38,242 nt of DNA. Source: a virus. Taxonomy: Duplodnaviria > Caudoviricetes. Below, piece by piece: positions 897 to 28,657 of this stretch. The translations under genes and the position numbers were made by a program. Where the stretch lies: the IMG/VR virus record IMGVR_UViG_3300032320_000142, positions 1 to 38,242 of that record; one strand, given 5' to 3'. Position 1 is the stretch's first letter; each line of letters begins with the position of its first letter. Below the pieces are notes generated by a model, which was given only the letters and a program-made list of their open reading frames with translations, made no database searches and was not told the DNA's origin.

Positions 897-904
897 TATT
901 TATC
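897..904 (-). promoter_or_regulatory. T4-like late promoter motif (GATAAATA)
   Basis: tatttatc on + strand. Close to the T4 late consensus TATAAATA, overlaps the stop of the giant ORF and lies 21 nt upstream of the next start. Confidence 0.6.
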
Positions 905-3900: not shown

Positions 3901-6900
3901 TCTACGTATGCTGGAATAATTATTGGTTCATTGGTGCTGCCATCGCCTGTAAATGTATTCATTTGAGCATCAGGATTTGTAATCACTGGCGTAGAATTTA
4001 ATGTTGACAAATTGTTAGCAACTTCTATTGTTTTATTTGAAACCTCAGTTTCTTTTGCAGACAGACTTGTCTGCAATACAACCAATTCTCCGTTGGCTAC
4101 AGATATGTCACTAATTAACTGTGCTTCCTGCGCTTGATTTTCTGCTAAAAGTGTTTGCAGAGTAAAATACAATGGATCGCTTGGCGAAGTTACTGCTAAC
4201 TGTGCTTCTAAATCTACAATAACTGCCTGTGTATCAATTAGATCCTGCGTAAAGCCGTCTAACTCTGCTTGTTTAGCATCTGTTTGATTTTGTAAAACTA
4301 CCTCTTCTGCTGTTAATGTCTCTAACTCAGCAACAGTGATATCGTAGGCAGTTTTAGCAGATGTGTAGACATCATAATTAACATCATCTATTCTTATACC
4401 GTTTATGTATACAGTAATCTGTTCGCCATCTTCTGGGATATAAGGAAGATTAAATGAACGAGTAGTTCCGTCAGATACAACTAGATGATCTGTGTATGCT
4501 TCATCGAAATCGTCCCAGCCCGCAGTAAACCATGGAAGGCCGTCCCAGCCTGAACCTATCTCAAATCCAAGTCCAGTTACTTCAACACCGCCGTAGTCAA
4601 TGCCTTTCATTAACTGTCCAAGATCTTTACCTAACTGTCCAGTTGTTGGATTATAATAATACTGAATTCTATCTGCGGCTGATAGCAATCTAATATCTTT
4701 GGTATAAGATATAGTTACGTTTGCTGATCCAATTTCTGCGGCTGTGGTTAATTCAAGAATACCAATGTATCTTGTATAACCCTTAGATGTGTCTTTTCTG
4801 TTGTAAACTTCAAAATCGCTAGATAACAATTCCTCGTTAGACACTACCACAGATGTTTTATTTGTTCTTAAATCAATTGGCCAATTTAATTCAAACAAAG
4901 TTCTAGAGCCAGTACCGTTAAATGTCTGTGTTACAGTTATAGAACTGATTTCATAATTAGGTATTGTTCTGTCAAACTTAATTCCTATAGTGTTTGTTCT
5001 AGTTAAACCATTGCCTAGCACCGCTGTAGCAGTTGCAGGTGTAGTAGAAGATCCTGTAATGGAAATTACAGGTGTTGTTATATAGCCAGCGCCTGATGTT
5101 TCTACAATAATCTTAGTTACAGATCCTTGTGATATGTAGGCCTTGGCTGTGGCTGTTGTTCTTGCACTGCCGACTATTTCAATAGAAGGTGCTACTTGAT
5201 AATCAGATCCGCCATTGGATACTATTATTTCTGTAACACTATAACCAATATTATCTAACCAGTCACTATAAGGAGCATTTAAAATAGTTCTATCTGTATA
5301 AACTATTGAAGATCCTCTAACTTTTACATTGTAAGGAAGAATTTTTCCTTCTTCTTGGTTATATGCGGCAGGTAGGTCAAAATCTGTTGTACCAGTATTT
5401 GTATTATCAGTGGCTGTATAATTGCTGATAAATTCTCTGACTTTAGTGCGATATGGTTTAACTTCATTGATATAATCTTCGTAACTAGATAAACTATCAT
5501 TTTTGTAGTTAATTTTTTGCTGTAATTCGCCTAAGTTGTGCTGACTCTTGACAAAAGATGTCTTGAAAGCCCAATCAACAAACGGCTGTTCTGTGAATAC
5601 ATAACGAAGACTTGCAAAGAATAATTTATTATATTCTATTTCTAAATCATCTACTAATATATTATTTTTAATAACATCTAAAATAATTCTTAATTCTTCT
5701 TTTGGTTCATCATCGTATGCGTCGCCGTCATAGGTAAAACTGTCAAAACCAATATTGCTGTTAACAAATTTATAAAGATTTGAATTAAACTGGATAGTAC
5801 CGTTTTCTCTTCCTACTGTTCTATAATTTAAAGAAACATTATCTGTGATTAAGTTATTAATTCTTTCTAATAGAATCCAGCCGCCAGATTTTTCGTTTTT
5901 AATTTTTACTAAATCACCGACCGCAATGTCAATGAAACTCATCTCGTAAGAAAAATCGACTAAATGATTTATCTTAGTATATTCTGAATAACCGTCGGCA
6001 TACCAATCAATATAATTCCAGTGTTTTGTTACATCGTATGTTTGTGTTTTAGATCTAAACCAGGTTCCTAGTGTAGTGTCCCATATATATAAACTCCACT
6101 TATTGGCGGCCGTTTCATCGCTGTTAACTAGAATTGTAAATGGTCGTACTGTCAGTATTGTTGTATCTAGGTAATCTCTACCAGAATTATTTACAGTTAC
6201 TCCGGTAATTTCTCCTGAAGAATTTAATCGTGCAGTTAATTTAGCACCTGAGCCTGCTCCTGTGATTGTGATTTCTGGAGAGATTTTATAGCCTCTTCCA
6301 GATGCAATAACAATTACTCTAACAATTTTTCCTGCTTCTACTACAGGTGCCAGTGTGGCTTGTTTAAATCCTGTAGAGCCAACAAAACGAATTTGACTTT
6401 GTGTATCTATAGCAATATCATACTTGCCAGAAATTTCTGTAGGAGCATCTTCTTTAGAATTTAATTTAGACAAGTCTAAATCATCTATTATAGATCTAGA
6501 AATTAAAACTGAGTTTACACGTTCTGTAAATTGTTTTAATGCTTCCAATCGGTTAACAAACATGCCTTGTCTAGGTTTGTTTAAAATTCCGTATTTTAAT
6601 TTTGCTGGCAGTTTAGGATCAGGAACTTCTGCGCCTGTTATATCGTAACCGACAAGACTGTCAAACCATTTTTGTTCAACATACTTGTTAAGTTTTTTAT
6701 TAATATTGCCTTCGGCCAATAACTGATAATGTGCATGAATGTTTTGTTCTGTGTTATCAATAATCCAATAACGAATGTTCAACGCAACGTCTTTTGCAGT
6801 TATTAAATCTTTACAGTTTACTAGTGCAAACTGATTTGATCCTAATAGTGTAGCGTATTGGGCGCCTTGTCCTTTTGGATTTGCTATTAACTTGGCTACG

Positions 6901-9900
6901 TCACTTGCTGATGTTTTTCTAAATGTAACATTCGGTACTACAGTTTTATTCTTCACCCAGAAGTAATAGATATTTTTAAATGTTTTACTTACGTTGTCAT
7001 AACTTTGACGAACACTGTATACTGCATCTCCGTATCTAGAAGTTCCACTAATACCCAACACCAATCCAGTTTCTGTATCTGCTAGGCTATCCCACTCACT
7101 TGGAAGATATTCGCTTTCAACCCATTCGTAGATATCAACGCTGGCATTGTTATAAACATTGTTCCATGTGTTGGCTTTGTAAACAATTGATCCTTGTAGC
7201 GGATCTGCAAATTTAACTGTGCTTAAATCCCACCAAAGTTTTCCAACATTGTTATTTTTCCATGCCATTAAAGAATTAGTTACAACTGCATCTGTACCTA
7301 CAGAATACGTTGCTGGATCATAGTATGTTTTAAAACTTAACTCTTGTTCTGCAATGCCTAATATTTTTCCATTGATAGGATCAATAAAATCAAGATTTGC
7401 AATTATATTGTTTGTTCTAGTATTGTATAAAAATAACGATTTAATCTTAGACAAATTAACAGACGATTCTGGTTGGCGATATTTTGTCCATGATTTTGCC
7501 GTACTAGCAAACTCGTAGAATGCTCCGTCTGTTGATGTTTGATCATTAACGTAGACATTTTTTGCTACAACAAATGCATCACCATAATTAATTCCTAAAA
7601 CATTTTGTGGTTCTAATTCATCACCAATTAAGAATTTTGTATCGTATTTTTCGTAAACACGCACACTACCAGTAAACTCTTCTAGTTCTATAAATTTAGT
7701 AACGTTTAAATCAAATGTAGTGTTTTCGCCGTCAATGGTAGTTTCAATTGTTTGATTTCCACCATAACTATAGATTACTAATCTATCTCCGTCAGCATTA
7801 AATTTAACTCTATAACCAAATTTTTCACTGTCTTGGTTTAATGGGCTGGTTATTAAATCAAGCGGTTCGTAAACTGTATTGTTTAATTTAAACAATGCTA
7901 CTGCACCTTGGTTTGATGCAACGTTAGAATATCCTGGTGCGCCAACTGCAATATAAGACGAATCATTAGAAATTGCAACAGATGTAGCAAAATTGCTGCC
8001 TGTACTAATCTGTTCTAACGAAACAAAATCGCTGACGTTTAATTCTTTTACTGTAACAAATGTTGAACTCACTAACTTAACTACTAATACTGATTCATCG
8101 TCTTTAGAAATAACAACAGTATTATTTGTTGAAACATCAATATCGGTTATTGATATTCCTGGTGTTAGGTCCAACGAAGTTATAATTGTATTAGAAGTAA
8201 GATTATATGCTGTCAATGCCGCAGGCACTAATGTGCTACCGTCAATTGATAATCCACCTTTAGATACTATGTATAAAATATTTCCGTTGACTTGAAGTTT
8301 GTCTCCAAAATATTGAAATTGTGTTGGAGTAGAGTTTTGTATAACTCGAGTAAATTCATAACTACCGTAAATGTTTCTAGTAAATTGTGCTACATATCCA
8401 ATATCAACTTCTGTGATTATAGGAGGATCTAAAGGATCTGGATCCGGGATAGATACCACACCGTACTTTGGGGCGCCTACAAATAGGTAAGTGCCGTCTG
8501 CACTAAAACAAATACTATCGCCGAAACTACCATTTGTATCTGTAAATGTTTCAGTCGACAACGGAGACAACGTTTCTTGATAGGCCCAGCCAAAATTTAC
8601 AGTCGGTCTTGAATAATAAAGAACAATGTTAGATGCAGAAACCGCAAAGACTATTTCATTTCCGCTAATTGCCAGTGCTTTTCCAAAATTATCTTCTTCG
8701 CTGGTAATTTTTGTTCTGGTATAGTTCTTAGAAAACTTCCAAACACTCCAATTATTATTAACACCATCTGTCCATACTAGTTCATTATTTTTCTTAGCAG
8801 ATATAGGCAGAGAGTTTAAATCATCAATACTTGATAATCGCTGTGGTGTAAATTTAAACAGATTAATGTTTAACGATTTGTTAATTTCAATTATAGCCGC
8901 AGTATCTAAATCTGCAGGCATGGTTATTTCGAACCAGTTCAATCCTGTATCGATTACTTCTTTGATACCTTCAAGAGAAGTGCTGGTGTTGTTAATTCCA
9001 ACATAACTTCCGATTTCAATATCTACTGGCAGTTTTGTTTTTAGAACAAATCGCAGATTTGAAGTTTCTTCGACAAGTTTTATCGATTTTGCAAAATTTG
9101 TAAATCTGTATACGTTCCAAGAACTCTTATCAAATCCAAGCCAGAAATATTTTCCTTCAACTAAAGTGTTAATATCATAATCTGCAAATTCATCTTTTGA
9201 ATTAATTATGTAATCAACATCTTCATAGTTTACATATCCAGCAGTACGAATATATTCTTTTTGCGATGCTACTACAGGGAACGGTGCATGTGTATAATCA
9301 TCAGGTTTTAAATACACCTGATCCTGAGTAATACGATAGACGAAATCGTTTACACCAAATGGAACAACATTTACCAATTCGATCGGTTGAGGGTTAATTA
9401 AGAATTTTTCTTCGTTGAGAATGTATTCTACTTCTTCAAAACCTGCGTTGGCTCCGTACTGACCTAAACGAATTGCCCACTCTTCAAAGAACTCAAGACT
9501 GTCTTGCTCTGCATAATTTAGTGCGTCAAACAATTTAGAAAGACTATTCTGTGTGCCTTTCTCTTGTATCATGCCTTGATAGAACTTATACTGACTTACA
9601 TCGTCATTGATAATGTTTTCTAAGTACTGGCGTTTTTGATAACCAATTAAGTGTTGTGCAAACTTTTGTTGGTCAACATCAAAACTATCAGTGTCTAAAT
9701 CATAAAAATCTTCAAACTGTGTAGCACGATAATCCCAGTTAGGAATTAATTTACTTTCTGGTTTATCTGATAATTTGTACCAACTGTCGTAATCAAATGT
9801 TTCTGTTCCTGGAACATTTTGTTTAGCACTATAATAAAATTCTTTGTACTTGACTGTTTCGCCCAGTGAATAATCTTTCCAAGATTTCCATTCTGTAACT

Positions 9901-12900
9901 GTTGCACGGTCGTAGACAAAACCAGGAATACTAAAATCTCCGGTCCAGTCGCTGATTTTATATCCTACTATTTTAATTCTATCTTGACGATAACCCTGAG
10001 TTTGATCGTATATGATATCATTGAAAACTGTAGCGTCGTCAAGAATTAAAACGTGTTCCTTTTGTACAAGATTTAGTGTTGCGTGATATAGACCGTCTGC
10101 TGTATTTGTTGGACGCAGACTAAAACTATTTTTCTCTCGAACACTGTTTGTAAAACTTGGTTCTAATTCGATACCGTCTTGTTTAAAAATAGAATATTCG
10201 TAAAACGGATCGTAAATGCTGTCGACTACTGCATAGTCTTGTCTATAAACTAATTCTTCTGCGGCTGGGCTTAATGTGATTACTGCGCCATCTGCCCAGT
10301 TTTGTGTAGTCCAGAATGTAAATTCTTTAGCACTAGTTTGCCAGTCTGTGTTTGTTCTTAGGGCAGGATTAAAATAATCAAATGTAAATCCTGAATCAGT
10401 TAGATACTTGCCATAGCCTAATAGAAAATCAACTACTTCTTGAACAGTTTTTAATTCTGCGCCGTAATGAAGAGTGTCAATATCAGTTTCAAAATTTCTT
10501 CTTAAAGTAATTTCTCTGCCGCCAACAATTGGCAGCGAAGGTAATTTAGCAAAATATTTAAGTTCAAAAGTTGTAGTACTGTCGTGAGCTGTTGTCACTC
10601 TAAAATAATTATCATCTCTTTTAACAATCTGACCTTTACTGTAGTATTTTCCAGAATTCCAATCTATATAAGTTTCAGAAATTCCACCAACACTAATCTG
10701 AGGATCAGAAACAGTTGATACTGCTTTTTTATATTTAAATTCTGGAACTAATTTATCGTAGCCTTTGATTACAAATCCTGAAGTAGTTTTTTCAACAATA
10801 ACTCCGCTGTAATCAATTGTTGTTACGGGTGTACTTGAATTTAGAATAATATCATAATTTTCTTGAGGAATAAAAACATTACCTTCATTCAGTGGACTAC
10901 GACTATCTAAAATTAATTTAAATTTTTCTTTAGTTGTAAATCCAGCAAGTTTGCTAGAAATTTTTACTTGTAATGAACTAAAATTTGTTTTAAAATTATC
11001 TAAAATTGTAAATGATTTGCTTAAAGCATAATCTGAAAGATAATTAACCAACCCACTAGTAAACACCCGTGTCGAGTCTTTTACTGTGCTTGGAAAAATT
11101 ACGTTCTTAGTACTGAAACGCAAATTACCTTCAGGTAACTTATAAACAATTTGTCCTGTATCATCTCTGTACTGACGTATTCTATCAAATCCTAAAGCAA
11201 ACATTTTTGCCGGTTGCAGTAAAGTTAAGGCAGTAATTAATGCAAATGGGAATTGACTGTTGCGGCGCCATGCTGTTTCAATCGGTGCTTGATCGCCAAA
11301 TGTAAATTCGCGTTCTGTAAACACAGATACAAAATCAGCAACCATACCTACTGTAAGTGGGTCAATTAATTGTCCCTGATCATCTACTGGTAAAAATTTT
11401 AATAGATCTGGCCTTGCATACAGTTTGTTCTTTTCAGGCAATTGTCCTGGAATTCTAATTAATCCTTCTGACAAATCTTGCCATAGTAGTAAGTTGTCTT
11501 TAGAATATGGAGCAGGTCCGTATGTATTTTCCCACCAATCAGGCTGAATGCTAAAACCTAACATCTCCCATGGATGTGTATGTGGGCGATCTGTATCGTA
11601 GAAGTATTTGTAAATACCTCTCCAGAATCCTAAATGCGGTACACCCGCAGGATCTGCAAACGATTTATAATTAAATGTAAACGGATTATTCCTATCAAAG
11701 AATGTGTGTTTGGTATAATCATCATTAATTAATGTTGACCAATTTAAAAATTCCTGTCTTAACGTAGAATTTAATTGTTCAATTGACACATCGGTTTTTC
11801 TAAAGAATCCTGAAACTAAACTATCAATGTTTAATAATTCAGGATTATATCTTACCTTAATATTGTTGTAAACTCGTGTTTCAAATTCTAATAACAATTC
11901 GTCTCTAAACTCGTTGGGCTCGCCTACTTTAGAAAACGCCACTGTGATACTACCGTCGTGTCCTTGTATTACCTTTGTAGGTGTTTGATAGGTATCGTCA
12001 ATATAAATTTTTGGTTCGAATAAAGGATATAACCCCAATTTGCTAGGAGTTGGAGGAACACAGCAACCGGCTGTTTGTTCATATTGAACAATTTTTAAAT
12101 TATCGCCGGCTTGAATTGGGGATAAAATTCTTACAAAACTAGTATTAATAAAAATATAATCTCTACGGTGTAATATTATTTCGTCGTTGACATAAATCAT
12201 TACAGCCTTGGCGCTGGCCTCGTCTAGATTAAAGTCAAATGTTAGAGGATAATCTGTAAACGAATCATCGATAACTTCTTGCTCGTAGACAAAATTTACG
12301 CCAAACGGAACCATATCACTTAGATAAAATGGAGATTCGATTGTATTATTTTTTGTAGCCTCTGTTAATATTAAATCTAAATGTGTTCTTGTTATTCCGT
12401 CGTAGCCGTAATTAGTGGCTGTTCTAATTAAATTACGTTTGAATTTAGAATATTCATTTTTTGCATAACGTAAACTTTTTATAATGTTTACATTTTTATT
12501 TGTAAATGAATAAATGATCGGAGCAAGAGGGCCAGAATGCTGTACAATTTGTGTACCGTATCCGGATACATTTCCTAAATCTCTTAAATTACTAATTCCT
12601 GGAATAGATCCTTGGAAATTAGAATAATTATCTGTAATTGTTTTTACATGATTAGAAATTTGCCCTAGTGTTAAATCATATAGACTTAAATTTTGAGGAT
12701 TACTTTCTAAATTGCTTGGAAATTTATAATATCCAATGTCATCTATTTTTTCAGCAGAAGACATTGTTTCAATAAGCACAATGTCATTAACTTTGACATT
12801 AGAAATAAACTGAATATAGGCAATGCCGTTTTGTCTATAAATTTCAAAGTCAGTTATTTTTTTATTATTAACAAAAATTTTAACATCTAAATCTTCAAGT

Positions 12901-14975
12901 GTTGCACTTTTTTTATAAACATCAATTGGGAATAAATTTAATAACTGTGCTGTAGCAACATACTGACGCACTACCGGCTGTCTAGTTAAAAATTCAGATT
13001 TAATCCAACCATTTAATAAATTAAAATTTGATAGGTCGCTGTTAAATCTAACATATCCTCTATCTAGATATCTTTCTATTAGTTCAACTTCGCCTTGGAA
13101 CGTAAACGAATCTTTCTGTAAATTAAAATCAAAAACTATGTCGCCAATATTTCCAATATTTTTATAAGATATATTAAAACCTAATTCATTATCATAGGTA
13201 TCACCAATTTGATAACTGAATAATTTAGTACCTGCAAATGTTGAACCCACATAGGTTGTTCTATCACCGTAACTTACTGCATTAACATCTACTACATCAA
13301 ATAATGGAGGAGTATTAACTTCAATTTTATCTTGGCTTTCTACCCATGCTCCGCTAGCATAATGGAACATCTTGCCTTTGAAATTATCACCGTCTGTGAT
13401 TAATACAGATTCGCCGTCAATAGGAGTTGTATCATCGTCTTCTAATAAAGTTATTCTTTTAATTCCAAGATGTGTTACAAACCCAATTTTAAAAATTCTG
13501 CCGTTAACAGTATCATCTGTGTCTACTGCAAATAACACTCGCATACCTTCTAATAACAGCACCCCGTCAATGTTATATCCAATACTGCCTTCAACTGTTG
13601 AAAATGCATCTTTAGTATACAAATCGATTAAGTCAACACTACGCTTGGCCTGACGACCAAAATTCCATAGTTGTATATCTGCTTTAAATTCAACAATCGG
13701 ACGCTTTGCCCTGGCTGTTTGATCAATTACCACTGGTTGATTATTATAGGCTGCTGATGCTTCAATAACAGATTTATGGAACCATCTATTGTATCTAGTC
13801 CAGTGATTTCCATCTCGACTACTTCTATTAATAGTGATGTAGTCTTTTTTACTAGGATAATTATTGTTTACATCAAACCCCTGTGTGTCAAAATTTTCTG
13901 AATCAAATTCAACGTCCTGATCTAATGTAAACGTAGAAGGAGTTTGCAAAGATGCTTCTGCAATCAATCTTATTCTTTCGCCTACACCTTCTACATACCA
14001 GTTGTCTGTTGCATATTTGTTAGGCGTAACATTTCCAATGAAATTCAACTTCATGCCGTTTGACAGTTCTGTGGTTCCGTCAATATTGTATGTCTTTTTT
14101 CCTAGAATTTCTTTTTCAACATCGATAAAAGTATTTTCCTCGATGTCATAAATCTTAAAGAATCCGGACATATTGATATCGTCCGCACTAACATAGTAGA
14201 GAATGTCTGGAGAAATTTCTGGTATTTTAAAAGTAATAGTACCTACTTCTACATACTTGGTGTCGCTGGTTATACCTTGCTCATATATAAAAGAATCTGC
14301 AAGATCTCTAATAGTTTTAAATGCGATACCGTGCCCAGGGCAATTAATCTCAAACTTGTATGTTTGACCTCTATATAATTTTAGAGTAGGATTTCTTGTT
14401 AGGCCGTCTGGGCTAAAGACATAGGCAAAATTATCACCGTCGTTAACAAAAGTAACAGTATAGGTACTAATTATTGATTTAGACTGTCCTTTGACAGCAA
14501 TGACCTGCGGACCTTTTGGAAGCCAATAGTATTCTCTATAGTTAACAAATTTATCCCACTCAATGTGAGGATCCCAACTGTAGAATTCCTGACTGTTTAT
14601 TTTACTATGGTCTGCAACAGCCGCATTAAAATAAAATAACTGATTGATATAATCATTGTAATCGCTGAAAAAAGTTATATTATCTAAATTGTCGCGAACA
14701 ATAACTGCTGGCTCTAACTGGTATGCAGATCTATTTGATGATATTTCTTCAACGTAGTTGTCGGCTGGTGTGTATGCTTTACTGGTTTTTCTACCAATAT
14801 AAGCATTAATTTTATCAACTGTGCCAACAGAAATTAACTGATCTAAAGTTCCATTTAAAAACTTTTGATTAGTGCTTGTTCTAAAATATCTAGGTAAAAA
14901 ATTAACAGCACTTCGTGAAGTGTCTGTACTGCTAGTTGGCAGACTTGGTTCTTTTTGATCTTTAGTAAATGCCAT
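900..14975 (-). CDS. Giant multidomain baseplate wedge / tail structural protein (4691 aa; position of gp7-like wedge gene)
   Basis: Single 14-kb ORF immediately downstream of gp6, with AAGGA RBS. N-terminal 'VNFLPRYFRT..NQKFL' looks wedge-like. Contains FG-GAP-like propeller repeats, G(S/A)GY beta-repeats typical of T4-like baseplate proteins, Ig-like repeats and a C-terminal 'ERIEY....NTLRYLRRGTLGT' motif. Confidence 0.75.
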   Translation of the reverse strand: MAFTKDQKEPSLPTSSTDTSRSAVNFLPRYFRTSTNQKFLNGTLDQLISVGTVDKINAYIGRKTSKAYTPADNYVEEISSNRSAYQLEPAVIVRDNLDNITFFSDYNDYINQLFYFNAAVADHSKINSQEFYSWDPHIEWDKFVNYREYYWLPKGPQVIAVKGQSKSIISTYTVTFVNDGDNFAYVFSPDGLTRNPTLKLYRGQTYKFEINCPGHGIAFKTIRDLADSFIYEQGITSDTKYVEVGTITFKIPEISPDILYYVSADDINMSGFFKIYDIEENTFIDVEKEILGKKTYNIDGTTELSNGMKLNFIGNVTPNKYATDNWYVEGVGERIRLIAEASLQTPSTFTLDQDVEFDSENFDTQGFDVNNNYPSKKDYITINRSSRDGNHWTRYNRWFHKSVIEASAAYNNQPVVIDQTARAKRPIVEFKADIQLWNFGRQAKRSVDLIDLYTKDAFSTVEGSIGYNIDGVLLLEGMRVLFAVDTDDTVNGRIFKIGFVTHLGIKRITLLEDDDTTPIDGESVLITDGDNFKGKMFHYASGAWVESQDKIEVNTPPLFDVVDVNAVSYGDRTTYVGSTFAGTKLFSYQIGDTYDNELGFNISYKNIGNIGDIVFDFNLQKDSFTFQGEVELIERYLDRGYVRFNSDLSNFNLLNGWIKSEFLTRQPVVRQYVATAQLLNLFPIDVYKKSATLEDLDVKIFVNNKKITDFEIYRQNGIAYIQFISNVKVNDIVLIETMSSAEKIDDIGYYKFPSNLESNPQNLSLYDLTLGQISNHVKTITDNYSNFQGSIPGISNLRDLGNVSGYGTQIVQHSGPLAPIIYSFTNKNVNIIKSLRYAKNEYSKFKRNLIRTATNYGYDGITRTHLDLILTEATKNNTIESPFYLSDMVPFGVNFVYEQEVIDDSFTDYPLTFDFNLDEASAKAVMIYVNDEIILHRRDYIFINTSFVRILSPIQAGDNLKIVQYEQTAGCCVPPTPSKLGLYPLFEPKIYIDDTYQTPTKVIQGHDGSITVAFSKVGEPNEFRDELLLEFETRVYNNIKVRYNPELLNIDSLVSGFFRKTDVSIEQLNSTLRQEFLNWSTLINDDYTKHTFFDRNNPFTFNYKSFADPAGVPHLGFWRGIYKYFYDTDRPHTHPWEMLGFSIQPDWWENTYGPAPYSKDNLLLWQDLSEGLIRIPGQLPEKNKLYARPDLLKFLPVDDQGQLIDPLTVGMVADFVSVFTEREFTFGDQAPIETAWRRNSQFPFALITALTLLQPAKMFALGFDRIRQYRDDTGQIVYKLPEGNLRFSTKNVIFPSTVKDSTRVFTSGLVNYLSDYALSKSFTILDNFKTNFSSLQVKISSKLAGFTTKEKFKLILDSRSPLNEGNVFIPQENYDIILNSSTPVTTIDYSGVIVEKTTSGFVIKGYDKLVPEFKYKKAVSTVSDPQISVGGISETYIDWNSGKYYSKGQIVKRDDNYFRVTTAHDSTTTFELKYFAKLPSLPIVGGREITLRRNFETDIDTLHYGAELKTVQEVVDFLLGYGKYLTDSGFTFDYFNPALRTNTDWQTSAKEFTFWTTQNWADGAVITLSPAAEELVYRQDYAVVDSIYDPFYEYSIFKQDGIELEPSFTNSVREKNSFSLRPTNTADGLYHATLNLVQKEHVLILDDATVFNDIIYDQTQGYRQDRIKIVGYKISDWTGDFSIPGFVYDRATVTEWKSWKDYSLGETVKYKEFYYSAKQNVPGTETFDYDSWYKLSDKPESKLIPNWDYRATQFEDFYDLDTDSFDVDQQKFAQHLIGYQKRQYLENIINDDVSQYKFYQGMIQEKGTQNSLSKLFDALNYAEQDSLEFFEEWAIRLGQYGANAGFEEVEYILNEEKFLINPQPIELVNVVPFGVNDFVYRITQDQVYLKPDDYTHAPFPVVASQKEYIRTAGYVNYEDVDYIINSKDEFADYDINTLVEGKYFWLGFDKSSWNVYRFTNFAKSIKLVEETSNLRFVLKTKLPVDIEIGSYVGINNTSTSLEGIKEVIDTGLNWFEITMPADLDTAAIIEINKSLNINLFKFTPQRLSSIDDLNSLPISAKKNNELVWTDGVNNNWSVWKFSKNYTRTKITSEEDNFGKALAISGNEIVFAVSASNIVLYYSRPTVNFGWAYQETLSPLSTETFTDTNGSFGDSICFSADGTYLFVGAPKYGVVSIPDPDPLDPPIITEVDIGYVAQFTRNIYGSYEFTRVIQNSTPTQFQYFGDKLQVNGNILYIVSKGGLSIDGSTLVPAALTAYNLTSNTIITSLDLTPGISITDIDVSTNNTVVISKDDESVLVVKLVSSTFVTVKELNVSDFVSLEQISTGSNFATSVAISNDSSYIAVGAPGYSNVASNQGAVALFKLNNTVYEPLDLITSPLNQDSEKFGYRVKFNADGDRLVIYSYGGNQTIETTIDGENTTFDLNVTKFIELEEFTGSVRVYEKYDTKFLIGDELEPQNVLGINYGDAFVVAKNVYVNDQTSTDGAFYEFASTAKSWTKYRQPESSVNLSKIKSLFLYNTRTNNIIANLDFIDPINGKILGIAEQELSFKTYYDPATYSVGTDAVVTNSLMAWKNNNVGKLWWDLSTVKFADPLQGSIVYKANTWNNVYNNASVDIYEWVESEYLPSEWDSLADTETGLVLGISGTSRYGDAVYSVRQSYDNVSKTFKNIYYFWVKNKTVVPNVTFRKTSASDVAKLIANPKGQGAQYATLLGSNQFALVNCKDLITAKDVALNIRYWIIDNTEQNIHAHYQLLAEGNINKKLNKYVEQKWFDSLVGYDITGAEVPDPKLPAKLKYGILNKPRQGMFVNRLEALKQFTERVNSVLISRSIIDDLDLSKLNSKEDAPTEISGKYDIAIDTQSQIRFVGSTGFKQATLAPVVEAGKIVRVIVIASGRGYKISPEITITGAGSGAKLTARLNSSGEITGVTVNNSGRDYLDTTILTVRPFTILVNSDETAANKWSLYIWDTTLGTWFRSKTQTYDVTKHWNYIDWYADGYSEYTKINHLVDFSYEMSFIDIAVGDLVKIKNEKSGGWILLERINNLITDNVSLNYRTVGRENGTIQFNSNLYKFVNSNIGFDSFTYDGDAYDDEPKEELRIILDVIKNNILVDDLEIEYNKLFFASLRYVFTEQPFVDWAFKTSFVKSQHNLGELQQKINYKNDSLSSYEDYINEVKPYRTKVREFISNYTATDNTNTGTTDFDLPAAYNQEEGKILPYNVKVRGSSIVYTDRTILNAPYSDWLDNIGYSVTEIIVSNGGSDYQVAPSIEIVGSARTTATAKAYISQGSVTKIIVETSGAGYITTPVISITGSSTTPATATAVLGNGLTRTNTIGIKFDRTIPNYEISSITVTQTFNGTGSRTLFELNWPIDLRTNKTSVVVSNEELLSSDFEVYNRKDTSKGYTRYIGILELTTAAEIGSANVTISYTKDIRLLSAADRIQYYYNPTTGQLGKDLGQLMKGIDYGGVEVTGLGFEIGSGWDGLPWFTAGWDDFDEAYTDHLVVSDGTTRSFNLPYIPEDGEQITVYINGIRIDDVNYDVYTSAKTAYDITVAELETLTAEEVVLQNQTDAKQAELDGFTQDLIDTQAVIVDLEAQLAVTSPSDPLYFTLQTLLAENQAQEAQLISDISVANGELVVLQTSLSAKETEVSNKTIEVANNLSTLNSTPVITNPDAQMNTFTGDGSTNEPIIIPAYVDVNDGDIIIFRKSTSDGSFRPNQQFLDSEITGGDFTYTTARGIRAEEIIIDGDNFVTPTTSYAPEEVVTGQVIDSVAITVYHTVEDGAPVITTRHYITTEPENEFLIGQRPNSTQAAFVKVNGLIKKQDVDYTLNFGLAKIVFPTNLPVGSEVVVTSMSRNGLNVLDSDSFIGDGVSIEFVTVARWDGDYSVLVTINGVPTTVTTFVTDNTYSEVGNIGIRFATAPANTAIIDYTVISSTLNSISRVSSETVVYDGTTQVYALTNTPANLEPFDNNVIVEHAGKILRPVDTVYFDVSGTSRTYLVSTVDYAINTIDTNKIRVYKNGQELLISKEFTWKSSNNQLTIKRGVAVAGDKIALVILANAEYYIEKDSTNTQIRLLDTYSANAKFVVTTFTNHDILDIERNNDFITSSSTVTIGSTEYYRLNQLLAGRIQLRSPSIGAQYIWLTLNGELLTPEIDYILEDNLTYIQIDRNKVLSDTDIIEVIVFSSSVSFNRPFGYRIFKDLLNRTFYKRLDADATTYLAQPLNYYDTKIELVDASNLVEPLRNQNQPGIIIIDKERIEYLEKSGNTLRYLRRGTLGTGIPQTHALGTMVIDASVGQTIPYKDETETVVLVAGGYSQGSEVFENSLGMSVTSVKYNFNNNTAFPLGTQVATVTGSGFKENVQVIVGDPTLTVNFTAAEINSAGEIIVSSIDRIYEGKEIVFTGAVFGGIETTTSYYVLTYGQDPTTDEYYITVSESISGSPVILSVSTGEMIGTHSRSVCKTTYINSTKLTFITQPEVVGAYDLIVLNPSFSVGPVTVAQTSYVAPEAIRYVQILLPFAPLPNPKTAVGWYKDTTEISVTDIQPGRGYKINTVGTTDYMSIGATANTVGTEFIATAVGSGTGTVLDYTSIPLEYWEGMDIEVFVAGTRLRKTPITIWDESLGPDSPSGDKQLQAEFAVNKNVGAYVRLTEPPMKGSKVIVQKKVGKVWVAQGESLVNSQTDQAKFVRAKAANLPR

Positions 14976-23863: not shown

Positions 23864-24703
23864 ATGAAAAAAATAAACTATCTTAATAACAAAGATTTAT
23901 TATCAGAAATACACAAAAGTAAGAATTCCTACTGTAGTTTTGTTAAGCCAGAATATCATCAATACGATTTAATTCTGCCTAGCATAGAAAAAATCAATAT
24001 TAGAACTGTAGCAGAAGCCAAACGGGCTAGAGCAAAACGACTTGCACAGCAGGCATTTGAGGCCGCTAAAGCAGAAAATGTCAAAGTTAAATTGGCAGAA
24101 TTTGAGGTTGATTATAAAAAGATTGAAAAAGTAGATTTAATCTTCCGCATTATGACTTATGATCACATTCCATTGGAACCAGGTCGTAAACGCACACCAA
24201 AGAGTCAAGCAGATCACAGAGAGAAGGTAAACTTTCCAGCATTTCAACATTGGAAGTTTGACGACACCGACGAACTTATCTGTGTAGGTAAAAGCCATTG
24301 GCGCGGTGGAATGATCAAAGGTAAGTTCAGCAAGGATCATGGACAGATTACAAATACATTGGCCCGAATGTATATCAAGCTCTGCGAGCGATATGCTACT
24401 CGTGGCAACGTTAGAGGTTACACATACAATGACGAAATGAAAGGACAGGCTATCCTTCAACTTACACAAATTGGATTACAATTCGATGAATCAAAAAGTG
24501 ATAATCCTTTCGCATATTTTACCGCCGCGGTTACTAACTCGTTTGTCCGTGTCATCAATATCGAAAAGAAAATGCAAAACATCAGAGACGATATCTTGCA
24601 AGAAAACGGTATGAATCCAAGTTACACTCGAATGATTAACCAAGAATATGATAATGCAATGAAACGAGAAAATCTCCCAGTAGTTCCACCAGTAGAAGAT
24701 TGA
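23864..24703 (+). CDS. gp55: Late-transcription sigma factor, T4 gp55-like (279 aa)
   Basis: 'NYLNNKDLLSEI' and 'YTYNDEMKGQAILQL...FDESKSDNPFAYFTAAVTNSFVRVINIEKK' match gp55 motifs. Upstream of gp47-gp46, as in many T4-like phages. Confidence 0.85.
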   Translation: MKKINYLNNKDLLSEIHKSKNSYCSFVKPEYHQYDLILPSIEKINIRTVAEAKRARAKRLAQQAFEAAKAENVKVKLAEFEVDYKKIEKVDLIFRIMTYDHIPLEPGRKRTPKSQADHREKVNFPAFQHWKFDDTDELICVGKSHWRGGMIKGKFSKDHGQITNTLARMYIKLCERYATRGNVRGYTYNDEMKGQAILQLTQIGLQFDESKSDNPFAYFTAAVTNSFVRVINIEKKMQNIRDDILQENGMNPSYTRMINQEYDNAMKRENLPVVPPVED

Positions 24704-24729
24704 TTTGCAACTTGTTAATATGTTACAAT
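24700..24729 (+). promoter_or_regulatory. sigma70-type promoter (extended -10) upstream of gp47
   Basis: TTGATT (24700-24705), 18-bp spacer, TACAAT (24724-24729) preceded by TGn (TGT). Confidence 0.55.
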
Positions 24730-24751
24730 ACGATACTCATAAAGGTATTCA

Positions 24752-25756
24752 ATGTTTAAAAAAATAGCCTGTTTCACAGACATACATTTTGGATTAAAAT
24801 CAAATAGTGCTGTACATAACCAGGACTGCGAAGATTTTGTAGATTGGTTTATTGCTGAAGCCAAAAAAGAAGGTTGCGACACCGGAATGTTTTTAGGCGA
24901 TTGGCATCATAACCGCAATAGTCTTAATATGTTGACTATGGTCAGTAGTATTCGCTGTTTAGAAAAACTAGGTAAAGCGTTTGATAATTTTTATTTCTTT
25001 CCAGGCAATCACGATTTGTACTATAAAGACAAACGTGATGTACATTCAGTTGACTGGGGCAGACACATACCTGGTGTAACCATCGTCAGCGATATCACAA
25101 CTATTGACGATGTAACTATGGTTCCGTGGCTAGTAGGTGATGAGTGGAAGAAGATGGAAAAGTTAAAAAGCCGTTATGTGTTTGGACACTTTGAACTTCC
25201 GCTGTTTATGATGAACGCTATGGTACAAATGCCGGATCACGGAGAACTACAGGCCAGTAACTTTAAAAATCCCGAGTATGTGTTTAGTGGACATTTTCAC
25301 AAGAGACAGGCTAAAGAAAATATTGTGTATATTGGCAATGCTTTTCCGCACAACTATGCAGATGCATGGGACGATGACCGCGGCATGATGATTTTAGAAC
25401 GAGATAAAAAGCCCGTGTATAAAGTCTGGGACAATGCGCCTAAATTTAAAACAGTTAAACTTAGCGAATTAATCGATAATTCAGAAAAATTAATACTGCC
25501 CAAGACATATCTGCGTGTAGGTATTGACATTGATATAAGTTTTGAAGAAGCAAGTTTTATTAAAGAAACTTTTATGGGTCAAGAAAATATTAGAGAACTT
25601 ACTCTAATTCCTGAAAAGAAAGATGTAGAGATTAACACTAACTTAGATGTGCAACAGTTTGAAAGTGTAGATCAAATTGTCAGCAGTCAAATTGCTAACA
25701 TTCAAAGCGACAGTTACGACCCTAAAGTACTGTTGGCTATCTATAATAACTTATGA
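24752..25756 (+). CDS. gp47: Recombination endonuclease subunit, Mre11/SbcD-like (T4 gp47; 334 aa)
   Basis: Metallophosphoesterase motifs DIHFG, GDWHH, GNHD, GHFE and SGHFH. Confidence 0.93.
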   Translation: MFKKIACFTDIHFGLKSNSAVHNQDCEDFVDWFIAEAKKEGCDTGMFLGDWHHNRNSLNMLTMVSSIRCLEKLGKAFDNFYFFPGNHDLYYKDKRDVHSVDWGRHIPGVTIVSDITTIDDVTMVPWLVGDEWKKMEKLKSRYVFGHFELPLFMMNAMVQMPDHGELQASNFKNPEYVFSGHFHKRQAKENIVYIGNAFPHNYADAWDDDRGMMILERDKKPVYKVWDNAPKFKTVKLSELIDNSEKLILPKTYLRVGIDIDISFEEASFIKETFMGQENIRELTLIPEKKDVEINTNLDVQQFESVDQIVSSQIANIQSDSYDPKVLLAIYNNL

Positions 25757-27534
25757 TAAAAATTAAAGATTTAACCGTACGTAATTTTATGAGTGTAGGA
25801 AATGCTACACAGGCTGTCGATTTTAATAAAGAGCAACTTACATTAGTCTTGGGCGAGAATTTAGATCAAGGAGGTGACGATTCCGGTTCTCGGAATGGCA
25901 CTGGCAAGACTACTATTGTAAATGCACTTAGTTATGGATTGTATGGTCAAGCATTAACTAACATTAAAAAAGATAATCTTATCAATAAGATTAATTCTAA
26001 AAATATGTTAGTTACTGTGGAATTCGAAAAAGACGGTCGTCTATATAGAATTGAACGCGGTCGTAAACCCAATGTGTTAAAATTCTATGTTGACAATCAA
26101 GAACAGGAAAATGCTGATGTAGACGATGAAGGCCAAGGCGATAGTCGTGAAACACAAAAAGATATCGACGAACTGTTAGGGTTGAGTCACGATATGTTTA
26201 AGCATATCCTTGCTCTTAATACGTATACCGAGCCATTCTTATCTATGAAACCTAATGATCAGCGTGTGATTATTGAACAGTTGCTCGGAATTACACTGCT
26301 ATCTGAAAAGGCAGAAGGTTTAAAAGAACAAATACGTATAACCAAAGAAGAAATCACACAGGAAAGTGCTAGGATAGATGCTGTTAAAAAATCCAATGAC
26401 AAAATACAAGAAAGTATTAACAGTTTAAAATTAAAACAGTCTGTTTGGCAACAGAACAAAGAAGCAGATATTTCTAAAATTCAAAAAGCCATTGACGAAT
26501 TGCTGAAAGTAGATGTTGAACAAGAAATTAATCAGCATGAACTGGCAAAAGTATACGACGAACAAGCGGCTAAGATTAAAAGTCTTAACAAAGAAAAGGC
26601 TACATTAGAAACTGCTGTTATGCAGGCAGATAAGACTGTTAAAAAATATCGTAAAGAAGTTGAACAATTAGAAAACAAAACTTGTCCGGCTTGCGAACAG
26701 GAACTGCACGATCACAAGCACGAAGAAATGATTAAAGCGGCAGAGAAAAATCTCACAGATGCTGATACATACTTGTCCAAAGTGGTAGGAGATCTCGAAT
26801 TGATTATCAAAGAACTCGACGGCATCGGAGATATCAATGGCAGACCTGCTACATTCTATGACACACTGAATGAAGCATACAATCATAGAAGCAATTTAGA
26901 AAGCCTAGCCGCACAGTTAAAAAACAAACAAGAAGAAATTGACACATATCAAGAGCAGATAATTGAATTAGAAAATACTGCACTACAGGAGGTGTCTTGG
27001 GATTCAGTTAACAGTTTAAATCTAATGAAAGAGCATCAAGAGTTCTTACTAAAACTGCTAACTAACAAAGATTCGTTTATTCGTAAGAAGATCATTGATC
27101 AGAATCTTGCTTACTTGAATAACCGTCTCACTTATTACCTTGATAAGGTGGGTCTACCTCACACCGTTGTATTCCAAAATGACCTAACGGTAGAAATAAC
27201 CCAACTCGGGCAGGACTTAGATTTTGATAACCTGTCACGAGGAGAAAGGAATCGCTTAATCTTAGGATTGTCGTGGGCGTTCCGCGATGTCTGGGAGTCA
27301 TTATACCAGAACATCAATCTCTTATTCATAGATGAACTTATTGATTCAGGCATGGATGCCAATGGAGTTGAAAACTCTTTAGGTATTTTAAAGAAGATGG
27401 GCCGTGAAAGACATAAGAACATTTATCTAATTTCTCATAGGGATGAATTAGTGGGTCGAGTGAACAACGTGCTCAAGGTAATAAAAGAAAACGGGTTCAC
27501 CAGTTACGCTAACGACATAGAAGTCTATGACTGA
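25753..27534 (+). CDS. gp46: Recombination ATPase subunit, Rad50/SbcC-like (T4 gp46; 593 aa)
   Basis: 'RNFMSVG', Walker A NGTGKTT, coiled coil with CPAC zinc hook, signature LSRGE, Walker B LLFIDE and ISH loop. ATGA overlap with gp47. Confidence 0.94.
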   Translation: MIKIKDLTVRNFMSVGNATQAVDFNKEQLTLVLGENLDQGGDDSGSRNGTGKTTIVNALSYGLYGQALTNIKKDNLINKINSKNMLVTVEFEKDGRLYRIERGRKPNVLKFYVDNQEQENADVDDEGQGDSRETQKDIDELLGLSHDMFKHILALNTYTEPFLSMKPNDQRVIIEQLLGITLLSEKAEGLKEQIRITKEEITQESARIDAVKKSNDKIQESINSLKLKQSVWQQNKEADISKIQKAIDELLKVDVEQEINQHELAKVYDEQAAKIKSLNKEKATLETAVMQADKTVKKYRKEVEQLENKTCPACEQELHDHKHEEMIKAAEKNLTDADTYLSKVVGDLELIIKELDGIGDINGRPATFYDTLNEAYNHRSNLESLAAQLKNKQEEIDTYQEQIIELENTALQEVSWDSVNSLNLMKEHQEFLLKLLTNKDSFIRKKIIDQNLAYLNNRLTYYLDKVGLPHTVVFQNDLTVEITQLGQDLDFDNLSRGERNRLILGLSWAFRDVWESLYQNINLLFIDELIDSGMDANGVENSLGILKKMGRERHKNIYLISHRDELVGRVNNVLKVIKENGFTSYANDIEVYD

Positions 27535-27754
27535 TGATATAAAAGACGACACGCATGACCAATTAGTCAAAGCGTTTATTGAATATAGTCGCTGGAACGA
27601 GCGTTTTGAACGCTACGGGTATCATGGTTCCAGCGTCCAGGCACGAGAATTTCTACGATCCATAAGAGATTTATGTAAAAAAAGACGGATGGAAATACAG
27701 GCAAGTCGCAGATTAAACAAAAAGGCCAAAACGGAAGGCAATGATCTGGAGTAA
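27527..27754 (+). CDS. Small basic helical protein, possibly Hc1-like nucleic-acid binder (75 aa)
   Basis: Overlaps the gp46 stop. 'AREFLRSIRDLCKKRRMEIQ' resembles the 'ARKAL.E..KL.K.RR.EI' pattern of Hc1-like phage proteins (recalled similarity, unverified). Confidence 0.55.
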   Translation: MTDDIKDDTHDQLVKAFIEYSRWNERFERYGYHGSSVQAREFLRSIRDLCKKRRMEIQASRRLNKKAKTEGNDLE

Positions 27755-27769
27755 TCGGTATATAAGTGC

Positions 27770-28213
27770 ATGTCGTGGCACTATCAAAATGATTTAGTTG
27801 AAGAAATACCTGAAGGCATCATTGGCTTCGTTTATCTCATCACAAACAATCGATCCGGACAGAAGTACATAGGCAAAAAATTAGCACAATTTAAGCGTAC
27901 TAAACCACCACTCAAAGGCAAAAAACTTAAAAGACGTAGCACAGTAGAAAGCGATTGGCGCGAATACTTTGGTTCATCAGATAGGTTAAACGCAGACGTC
28001 CACGAATTAGGTCCGGAAAACTTCACACGAGAAATACTTTATTTTTGCAAATCCAAGGCAGAGATGTCTTATCTAGAGGCAAGAGAGCAGTTCGAACGCA
28101 GAGTTTTAGAAACTGACGAATACTATAACGGCATTATCAATGTTAGAGTAGGCGGATCAAATATACTAAGACAGCGTTTATTAGAACAAGCACAGGCAAA
28201 ATCAAACGGTTAA
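27770..28213 (+). CDS. Stand-alone GIY-YIG endonuclease (SegE-like catalytic domain; 147 aa)
   Basis: 'GFVYLITN..SGQKYIGKK' GIY-YIG motif, 'W.EYFGSS', 'FTREIL', Glu-bearing helix 'YLEAREQ' and 'YYN'. No C-terminal NUMOD/HTH module is visible. Confidence 0.85.
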   Translation: MSWHYQNDLVEEIPEGIIGFVYLITNNRSGQKYIGKKLAQFKRTKPPLKGKKLKRRSTVESDWREYFGSSDRLNADVHELGPENFTREILYFCKSKAEMSYLEAREQFERRVLETDEYYNGIINVRVGGSNILRQRLLEQAQAKSNG

Positions 28214-28580
28214 TGGCTAGCGCAGGCTAAATTCGTGCGCTCTATACCTGGATCACGGATCGCAGGGACGGAATTCTCTTGCCGTTAAGAGTACTCAGCA
28301 ACTATCCTTAACAGGACGAGGATCGCAAACTGCCGCGGTTTTGCTGTTTTAAGAAGAAAGGCCCAAAGAGAGGAGAAAAACCTCACGTAAGCAAGTATGA
28401 TAGCGTATATTTGTTTACCGCCGTTGTGATAAGACGGAGCTCGTGGTACCGGACAACCGCCACTGTAATGCTCTAACGCTGTGTGACATTGTGCAACTCA
28501 GATAATGTTTTTAACTTTGCCCTGTGCGGGCGAAGTGTGACTGAACAATCTAGATAATGCTAAAGTGCTTCGCACTTAAT
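28214..28580 (+). ncRNA. Candidate structured non-coding RNA (family not recognised)
   Basis: No ORF in the track. About 47% GC by hand count over 28211-28560, above the short AT-rich intergenic gaps. At least 10 consecutive hairpins, several with G-U pairs favouring the + strand, and potential pseudoknots. Boundaries are approximate. Confidence 0.6.
28481..28559 (+). repeat. Imperfect direct repeat GTGTGAC-N10/12-AGATAATG (2 copies)
   Basis: GTGTGACATTGTGCAACTCAGATAATG (28481-28507) and GTGTGACTGAACAATCTAGATAATG (28535-28559). Confidence 0.7.
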
Positions 28581-28657
28581 AATGCTCTATCATTAATAAA
28601 GAAAGAAATAGTTCGAGCGATAGCGAAGAACAGATGAACGCAGTGAATCTTGAAGTA

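Follow-up and report, generated by a model that had tools for sequence, protein, structure and literature searches.

What occupies the one large gap behind a small nuclease gene in a phage genome, and does it work together with that nuclease? The question is raised by the stretch of DNA analyzed here (38,242 nt, referred to as the window), which is part of a T4-like large phage and in which an earlier note had seen a minimal GIY-YIG nuclease gene followed directly by a highly structured candidate RNA, possibly a partner, guide or scaffold of the nuclease and otherwise an independent phage ncRNA. The structured RNA stands: the gap behind the nuclease gene contains a real, pseudoknotted non-coding element of about 365 bases, part of which has already been catalogued. 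The link to the nuclease is weak, and the independent ncRNA fits best. We favor, at roughly an even chance and by analogy with ColE1 RNA II, the possibility that the element is a putative self-anchoring R-loop primer RNA that acts in cis at a replication origin. The features referred to below are as follows.

23864..27754, plus strand: upstream operon with a late sigma factor, SbcD-like and SbcC-like genes and a 75-aa ORF
27770..28213, plus strand: SegE-like minimal GIY-YIG nuclease (PF19835, PHROG 447)
28194..28213, plus strand: 5' leader with a conserved AGGC, overlapping the last nuclease codons (from covariation)
28215..28349, plus strand: 5' domain, Polynucleobacter-1 (RF01718)
28370..28499, plus strand: 3' domain, outside Rfam, with stems 28387-418 and 28437-73 and pseudoknots 28400-06:28476-82 and 28424-27:28453-56
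28500..28506, plus strand: box 1, AGATAAT, after an invariant ACTC
28514..28536, plus strand: hairpin between the boxes (82% paired)
28552..28558, plus strand: box 2, AGATAAT, after an invariant ATCT; putative DNA target of box 1
28563..28650: tail, A+T-rich, in which small hairpins form at 28563-77, 28611-31 and 28632-50 (the last imperfect here)

The ORF list of the window confirms 28214-28657 as its sole large interior gap. As had been claimed, the first helix begins 5 nt past the nuclease stop and no terminator-like site lies between the two, the only such site being at 28319-28342 (1 found vs 1.2 expected). Past the nuclease gene the order is the 444-nt gap, reverse-strand genes including the baseplate hub, and then the portal and head protease; elsewhere in the window a reverse-strand ORF of 4691 aa fills 900-14975. 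The closest relatives of the sigma factor among cultured phages are found in PA5oct-, PBECO4- and Atu_ph07-type jumbo phages (39-44% identity). The upstream operon is the presumed origin of read-through transcription into the element. No conserved internal promoter for the element was found in the window, and a candidate promoter in the tail of the nuclease gene was rejected as not conserved (TATACT in 17 rows, CATACT in 27). An ATAAATA motif precedes six of the window's genes.

The view that the RNA belongs to no known family proved wrong for 28215-28349, which an Rfam search matched to Polynucleobacter-1 (RF01718) at 116.2 bits vs a gathering threshold of 37, over model positions 1-141. Since these first 135 nt match RF01718, the element is partly known. 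The remainder gave nothing significant against Rfam, and BLAST of the gap against cultured phages gave no match. RF01718 also matches 7 of 12 related loci tested, and the gap is conserved far past the end of that model in the 80 closest nuclease loci. Taken over the full gap, folding energy does not exceed what chance would give (z -1.16, with 13 of 100 shuffles equally good), so the evidence for the fold is covariation, which we measured as mutual information in an alignment of 111 non-identical relatives (Neff about 88). By this measure the core spans about 28194-28558 and holds three pseudoknots, followed by a hairpin tail. Several helices drawn in the earlier note are backed by two-sided changes in the 111 relatives (28219-41, 28247-66, 28296-346, 28387-418 and 28437-73), as is the helix at 28322-39; the helix at 28370-84 has such support in weaker form. 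The hairpin at 28514-28536 is 82% paired, and the ACATTGT/ATAATGT helix is weak (78.6% paired, many gaps). The proposed CCGTT/GACGG stem (28421-37) does not covary; 28424-27 pair with the loop at 28453-56 instead (97% paired), and G28437 pairs with C28473. The pseudoknot 28400-06:28476-82 (96% paired) had been missed altogether, as had a 5' pseudoknot and the hairpin tail. In the 5' pseudoknot, ACGG at 28206-09, which in the window lies in the last nuclease codons, pairs with the loop at 28282-85; depending on the phage, this 5' motif falls inside the ORF or past its stop. For the 3' domain, pairs were counted in 58 of 68 picked domains, 10 with long inserts or high divergence being left out. 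In these, 87.1% of cells pair and two-sided changes occur at 36 of the 51 pairs; covariation is 0.423 vs 0.168 in shuffled and 0.06-0.09 in slid controls, none of 500 shuffles being as high, and the slid controls are 36-48% paired.

Several further observations concern the element as a whole. Four of the 12 RNA runs listed (X1, X2, X3 and X5) gave contigs of relatives that span gene and gap alike, with no discrete ends. A group I intron was rejected, as there is no Rfam group I match at E<=10 and no downstream exon, and the ACUA context resembling a group I P7 core pairs locally with 28342-46. In the window the AGGC leader (28190-28206) could also base-pair with the 5' arm of the inter-box hairpin (28510-28527), to which its sequence is complementary, with no covariation seen. 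Internal deletions of the element occur in contigs L007, L064, L035 and L167 (L035 lacks box 1) and may be artefacts of assembly or amplification.

The core ends in a feature that had been overlooked, two 7-nt direct repeats (AGATAAT) at 28500-06 and 28552-58. A DNA-pattern scan, in which the search pattern fixed two of the seven box positions and left the others free, returned 120 of an estimated 1300 or so loci, or 115 after removal of 5 duplicates. The two boxes are identical in 112 of the 115, across 12 variants, and their sequence varies between phages. The three mismatching loci lack the hairpin and lie inside coding DNA and were, for that reason, read as chance matches and set aside post hoc. 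Box identity extends to 777 of 777 aligned cells, vs 3057 of 3363 Watson-Crick cells in stems. Among 120 bacterial pattern matches taken as a control, most of which are due to chance, 12 agree at each of the five free positions and another 4 at four of them; the 12 full matches carry the hairpin and the flanking motifs, and one of the four (L316) is a genuine element with a box mismatch. When box type is mapped onto a tree of 108 rows from which the boxes had been left out, it changes 41 times, a count to which recombination could add apparent changes and for which the bootstrap is not fully settled; the two main types change at least 10 and at least 14 times on starred branches alone.

What do the boxes pair with? 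In register, antiparallel pairing between them reaches only 26.6%. A slide of two columns raises this to 67.5%, and given this value some RNA-RNA contact of the boxes may occur. No complementary third copy was found in about 1.4 kb of the locus. With neither antiparallel pairing nor a nearby complement, the complementary DNA strand is left as the partner, and pairing of one box copy with the other's complementary DNA strand would, judging from the sequences, be the simplest cause of their identity. Copying of one box onto the other is not required: in 21 close pairs there were 2 double and no single box changes (in stems, 33 double changes, 7 of them from one deleted sequence, and 24 single changes over 31 stem pairs).

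A transcript re-pairing with its own template close to the 3' end, and an A+T-rich hairpin tail beyond it, would fit an R-loop primer origin like ColE1 RNA II and T4 oriF/oriG. In the scenario that we favor, the RNA would be transcribed as the tail of the sigma-SbcD-SbcC-nuclease operon, with promoters of its own in the look-alikes described below, and box 1 of the transcript would re-pair with the DNA template strand at box 2 and hold an R-loop open for priming. The contact may be bipartite, with a second short match just upstream of each box, and the hybrid would be trimmed and extended by the phage replisome. Hairpins of the tail, on displaced DNA, could then serve the loading of helicase or primase, and the GIY-YIG protein would be a Holliday-junction or branch nuclease in a replication-recombination operon rather than an RNA-guided enzyme. 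The 55 nt past box 2 have an A+T content of 0.68, vs 0.54 in the core (mean of 111). Hairpin loops of the C-GAA-G and G-N(1-3)-A types are specially stable in DNA. The loop of the hairpin at 28563-77 reads C-GAA-G on the minus strand, as do minus-strand loops in 86 of the 111 relatives, and plus-strand tail loops read G-N(1-3)-A in 86 of the 111, many of them not GNRA and all found with a search pattern that forced the G and the A. We read the tail hairpins as possible single-stranded-DNA signals, with a presumed resemblance to the primosome-site consensus.

Our reasoning for preferring the primer origin is that: (i) the boxes are identical in nearly all loci; (ii) box type has changed 41 times; (iii) the bacterial control separates full box matches from chance; (iv) no other partner was found for the boxes; (v) look-alikes in cultured jumbo phages show multiple co-oriented copies, promoters, matched triplets and a transcript, ncRNA004; (vi) T4 and ColE1 offer precedents for priming by a transcript; and (vii) in integrase-bearing bacterial islands the 3' module comes with a 188-aa recombinase and gave no GIY-YIG match. 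Against it we count that 7 bp is a short anchor; that the boxes show no rG-dT wobble states, although a simple hybrid should tolerate them; that the slid boxes pair at 67.5%; that the window clade has a single copy and four bacterial islands have a late-type promoter motif; that profile searches do not connect the look-alikes to the window family; that the agreement at the end of ncRNA004 could be due to chance; and that base skew, in four genomes, follows gene direction, with no origin signature separable from it.

The look-alikes came from the corresponding slot of PBECO4, where a gap is conserved in 73 phage records; 8 of these could be aligned and share a promoter, stems that look alike and a repeat of 6-7 nt whose two copies change together. 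By profile search, PBECO4 has 4 copies, BF has 5 and RaK2 has 3, every one of them lying on the majority strand.

PBECO4: copies at 38, 94, 195 and 305 kb
BF: copies at 30, 93, 174, 259 and 335 kb
RaK2: copies at 7, 191 and 280 kb

These are unannotated structured elements of 500-700 nt (loci L335-L370 and L389-L406), dispersed and co-oriented, each with a sigma70-type (TATAAT-type) promoter; none of those tested matched Rfam. Spacing of the copies is evener than random in PBECO4 and BF, which as related genomes do not give independent tests, and not in RaK2 (P 0.047, 0.005 and 0.13, respectively). The triplet before each box matches within each of the 12 copies, two of them read from a printed alignment, and differs between paralogs. 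PA5oct has three paralogs, at 13, 76 and 246 kb. The 246-kb copy is ncRNA004 (L620:417-1035), which was annotated from RNA-seq and is highest early (0.08/0.03/0.02% of phage reads; PMC7318152). Its annotated 3' end is the last base of a second CATAAG copy, an agreement that has a chance of about 10% and was found post hoc. Of its two paralogs (L621; L325:13990-15350), one is overlaid by four tiny hypothetical ORFs and one is unannotated in the terminal repeat. PBECO4 DNA matches PA5oct in weak pieces only. The RaK2-type and PA5oct elements were picked up neither by the freshwater HMM, nor by model R1 (best E 1.8), nor by a subfamily HMM, so what the look-alikes show transfers by architecture only, and it is in architecture alone that the window family is like them. 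The window clade, unlike the look-alikes, has a single copy in each genome, as seen in 9 records, of which two are 99-100% complete.

The twin-box end is also found beyond the family of the window. A second and more divergent RNA class (L078, L079 and L407-L526; about 640 stretches estimated) has another 5' part and the same twin-box end, with identical boxes in 111 of 112 and no Rfam match in those tested. In bacteria, seven loci have the 3' module, six of them in Rhodobacteraceae and one in Limnohabitans. Model R1 gives 38 and 33 bits for two of these island loci and is found in 1 of 151 in a Nereida family sample, Nereida itself having three copies; RF01718 is found in none of 151 genomes of a Limnohabitans family sample. 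Four islands have a 188-aa tyrosine recombinase within about 1-3 kb and three have a larger integrase. An ATAAATA late-type promoter motif lies upstream in four islands, at a distance from box 1 of about 350 nt in two of the Nereida copies, and fits packaging as well as replication. An integrative island family (L222, L238, L243 and L251) combines the RNA module with the 188-aa recombinase, which consists of a catalytic domain only; the AAA protein of L222 and a 435-aa protein of L238 have homologs in jumbo phage G001. These four islands are possible phage satellites.

Should the primer reading hold, one might go further and suppose an initiator-free, RNA-addressed class of origin in a wide T4-like jumbo-phage group, in which a knotted RNA reads a short bipartite address on the template strand, in single or evenly spaced copies. 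Islands would borrow it under phage late promoters to hijack the helper replisome, and the address would be rewritten by changing both boxes. We regard this generalization as tentative and, on balance, doubtful.

The nuclease itself was correctly recognized. Its ORF (27770-28213, 147 aa) matches Pfam SegE_GIY-YIG (PF19835; E 3.9e-35, 121.2 bits vs a cut-off of 25) and PHROG 447 (E 8.2e-38). An AlphaFold model (mean pLDDT 72.7) has its best fold match in the I-TevI catalytic domain (Z 6.6, rmsd 3.4, 74 aligned), followed in order by PD-T4-3, UvrC and T4 EndoII; Foldseek with this model gave nothing at E<=0.001, and no sequence match to a solved structure was found. Y22, Y33, E103 and N120, which we take to be the catalytic residues, are invariant in 27 sequences of the family. 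Relatives number 7709 at E<=0.001, and 498 cultured-phage records have them; PHROG 447 and many cyanophage records carry the label 'NAD synthetase' for this family. Four cultured relatives of the phage gave no match to the window nuclease. In PA5oct the slot holds an annotated RusA-like resolvase and in PBECO4 and GAP32 an endonuclease VII, in opposite orientation; in Atu_ph07 (L327:13500-14000) it seems, by eye, to be filled by a nuclease-like ORF on the reverse strand that is not annotated, with no large gap for an RNA. A PD-(D/E)xK nuclease takes the place of the GIY-YIG gene in other loci, identified as Pfam PDDEXK_15 in L142 and the L091 record and by likeness in L114, L225, L427 and L451. 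The very high conservation of the nuclease (77-94% identity across the 80 closest loci) and the fact that resolvase-type genes can replace it point to a housekeeping role and not to homing. It is likely, as a predicted activity, that the window nuclease is a branch-cutting housekeeping enzyme and a neighbour of the RNA.

These findings also bear on a different role for the boxes, in which the same cis RNA-DNA anchor would mark a cut site, where the adjacent nuclease (GIY-YIG, PD-(D/E)xK or Endo VII) or terminase cleaves a branched structure and so starts recombination-dependent replication or packaging. A nuclease does adjoin the element in the window clade, PBECO4, GAP32 and PA5oct; PDDEXK_15 and GIY-YIG are mutually exclusive in the five records compared (absent from four GIY-YIG-positive records, present in one GIY-YIG-negative record); and the islands have late-type promoter motifs. 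However, the resolvase gene is distant from most of the RaK2-type copies, cargo genes often intervene between nuclease gene and element, the promoters of the look-alikes are of early type, and a search of five island genomes, run without a positive control, gave no GIY-YIG match. We consider this reading unlikely.

Distinctly unlikely, in our estimation, is that the boxes serve to stop transcription or to make a 3' end, in which case box 1 would displace the nascent copy of box 2 from the polymerase hybrid and free a stable trans-acting RNA. The RNA-DNA hybrid within polymerase is about 9-10 bp, close to the length of a box; the final base of the second box is also where ncRNA004 ends, and no intrinsic terminator was found 3' of the element core. 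Even copy spacing and carriage by islands would be left unexplained, however, and ncRNA004 is of low abundance.

The idea from which this work started, that the RNA and the GIY-YIG nuclease form a dedicated ribonucleoprotein with the RNA as guide or scaffold, we now think improbable. In its favor, the nuclease gene lies upstream of the RNA in 69 of 77 callable class I loci and 64 of 69 class II loci, the element overlaps the gene tail, and the protein is as strongly conserved as noted above. The eight class I exceptions comprise three chance matches, two loci with the gene about 1 kb further upstream and three with a PD-(D/E)xK nuclease. Set against this, unrelated folds occupy the same slot, near-identical nucleases go with different boxes (those of L005 and L010 differ at 2 residues), and an 83%-identical nuclease in L079 goes with the second RNA class. 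The Melnitz nuclease, 64% identical, is followed by a gap of 148 nt with no match to model R1. Enough flank was available for 65 Melnitz-like loci: twin boxes are present in 21, 16 keep the gene and its basic insert with the next ORF only 37-190 nt away, and 28 have long gaps, in which the pattern may have missed divergent forms. Since the basic insert is kept in these RNA-less Melnitz-type proteins, it is no mark of RNA binding, and the guide-like variable segment that was to be looked for came down to one variable matched segment in about 1.4 kb, which matches the element's own 3' end. The earlier note had named in advance, as results that would speak against the novelty of the RNA and against its coupling to the nuclease, an Rfam match and occurrence of the RNA without the nuclease, and both were found, the latter in islands and at PD-(D/E)xK loci. 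Because PD-(D/E)xK nucleases occupy the same slot, islands lack a GIY-YIG match and Melnitz-type nucleases occur without the RNA, we regard the link as weak and the nuclease as a neighbour.

It is more improbable still that a single trans factor binds both boxes, be it a dimeric protein of phage or host or a further RNA, and that its specificity varies from phage to phage. This would account for the strict, wobble-free identity of the boxes and for the 6-nt box core not varying among the copies of any one RaK2-type genome, but box type switches between phages with 98% identical RNA cores, and the triplets upstream of the boxes differ between paralogs of one genome while matching within each copy. 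Finally, it is highly improbable that the boxes provide the homology for template jumping, giving DRT2-like concatemers, or for site-specific excision of a 52-bp circle: strict 7-nt identity and the short tyrosine recombinase of four islands would fit, but no concatemer junctions were found in viral or metagenome contigs and no excision junctions in viral contigs (assemblies can hide rare forms of both), and the 188-aa recombinase has no match in 4 large phage genomes.

If the primer reading is true, an RNA catalogued without function since 2010 gains a mechanism with genetically testable boxes, and a common phage nuclease labelled 'NAD synthetase' gains a likely role; if the origin reading fails, strict same-strand covariation of 7 nt in a large RNA still needs explanation. 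The literature searched, which took in the main text of 2026 preprints, contained no description of the full element and no account of how replication starts in RaK2/PA5oct-type and aquatic jumbo phages. The full fold, the twin boxes and the multi-copy look-alikes were not found in print in these searches, the 5' third being already catalogued.

How does the element compare with known systems? Polynucleobacter-1 is presented, in the part of Weinberg et al. 2010 that deals with it, as a candidate without function, possibly a cis-regulatory RNA, with 16 examples (PMC2864571). Its whole 141-position model is matched by 28215-28349, roughly one third of the element, and does not reach the twin boxes, the tail or either of the 3' pseudoknots. 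Among SegE-like GIY-YIG proteins (PF19835/PHROG 447), the window protein has no separate DNA-binding domain. With IscB/HEARO, TnpB and bridge-RNA systems the element shares a large RNA that adjoins a nuclease gene, and with bridge RNAs also a same-strand covariation like theirs between RNA and DNA. It differs in having no obligate protein partner and, in about 1.4 kb searched, no outward-pointing guide, and in sitting in a fixed genomic slot with no mobile-element ends; that RNA and nuclease do not obligately co-occur speaks against an RNA-guided nuclease of the IscB/HEARO or TnpB type.

There is also precedent in origins that are primed by a transcript. In ColE1, a G-run in the upstream part of RNA II re-pairs with a C-run of the template. 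As set out in the sections of PMC5043065 on this plasmid, ColE1 primes from a 550-nt folded RNA (RNA II) with no plasmid initiator protein, by means of a persistent hybrid at the RNA's own 3' end. The window element is likewise a long folded RNA, for which a primer hybrid at its own 3' end is only predicted; it has no sequence or Rfam similarity to RNA II, an antisense RNA I was not found, and its putative anchor is a variable 7-mer. T4 has several R-loop origins per genome, and oriF and oriG are described, in the portion of PMC3016281 that treats them, as about 100 bp long, with a promoter, an A+T-rich downstream region whose unwinding element is sequence-independent, and an RNA primer. The window element resembles these in the A+T-rich region downstream of its box 2 and differs from them in being a 350-600-nt element with a conserved fold and matched boxes.
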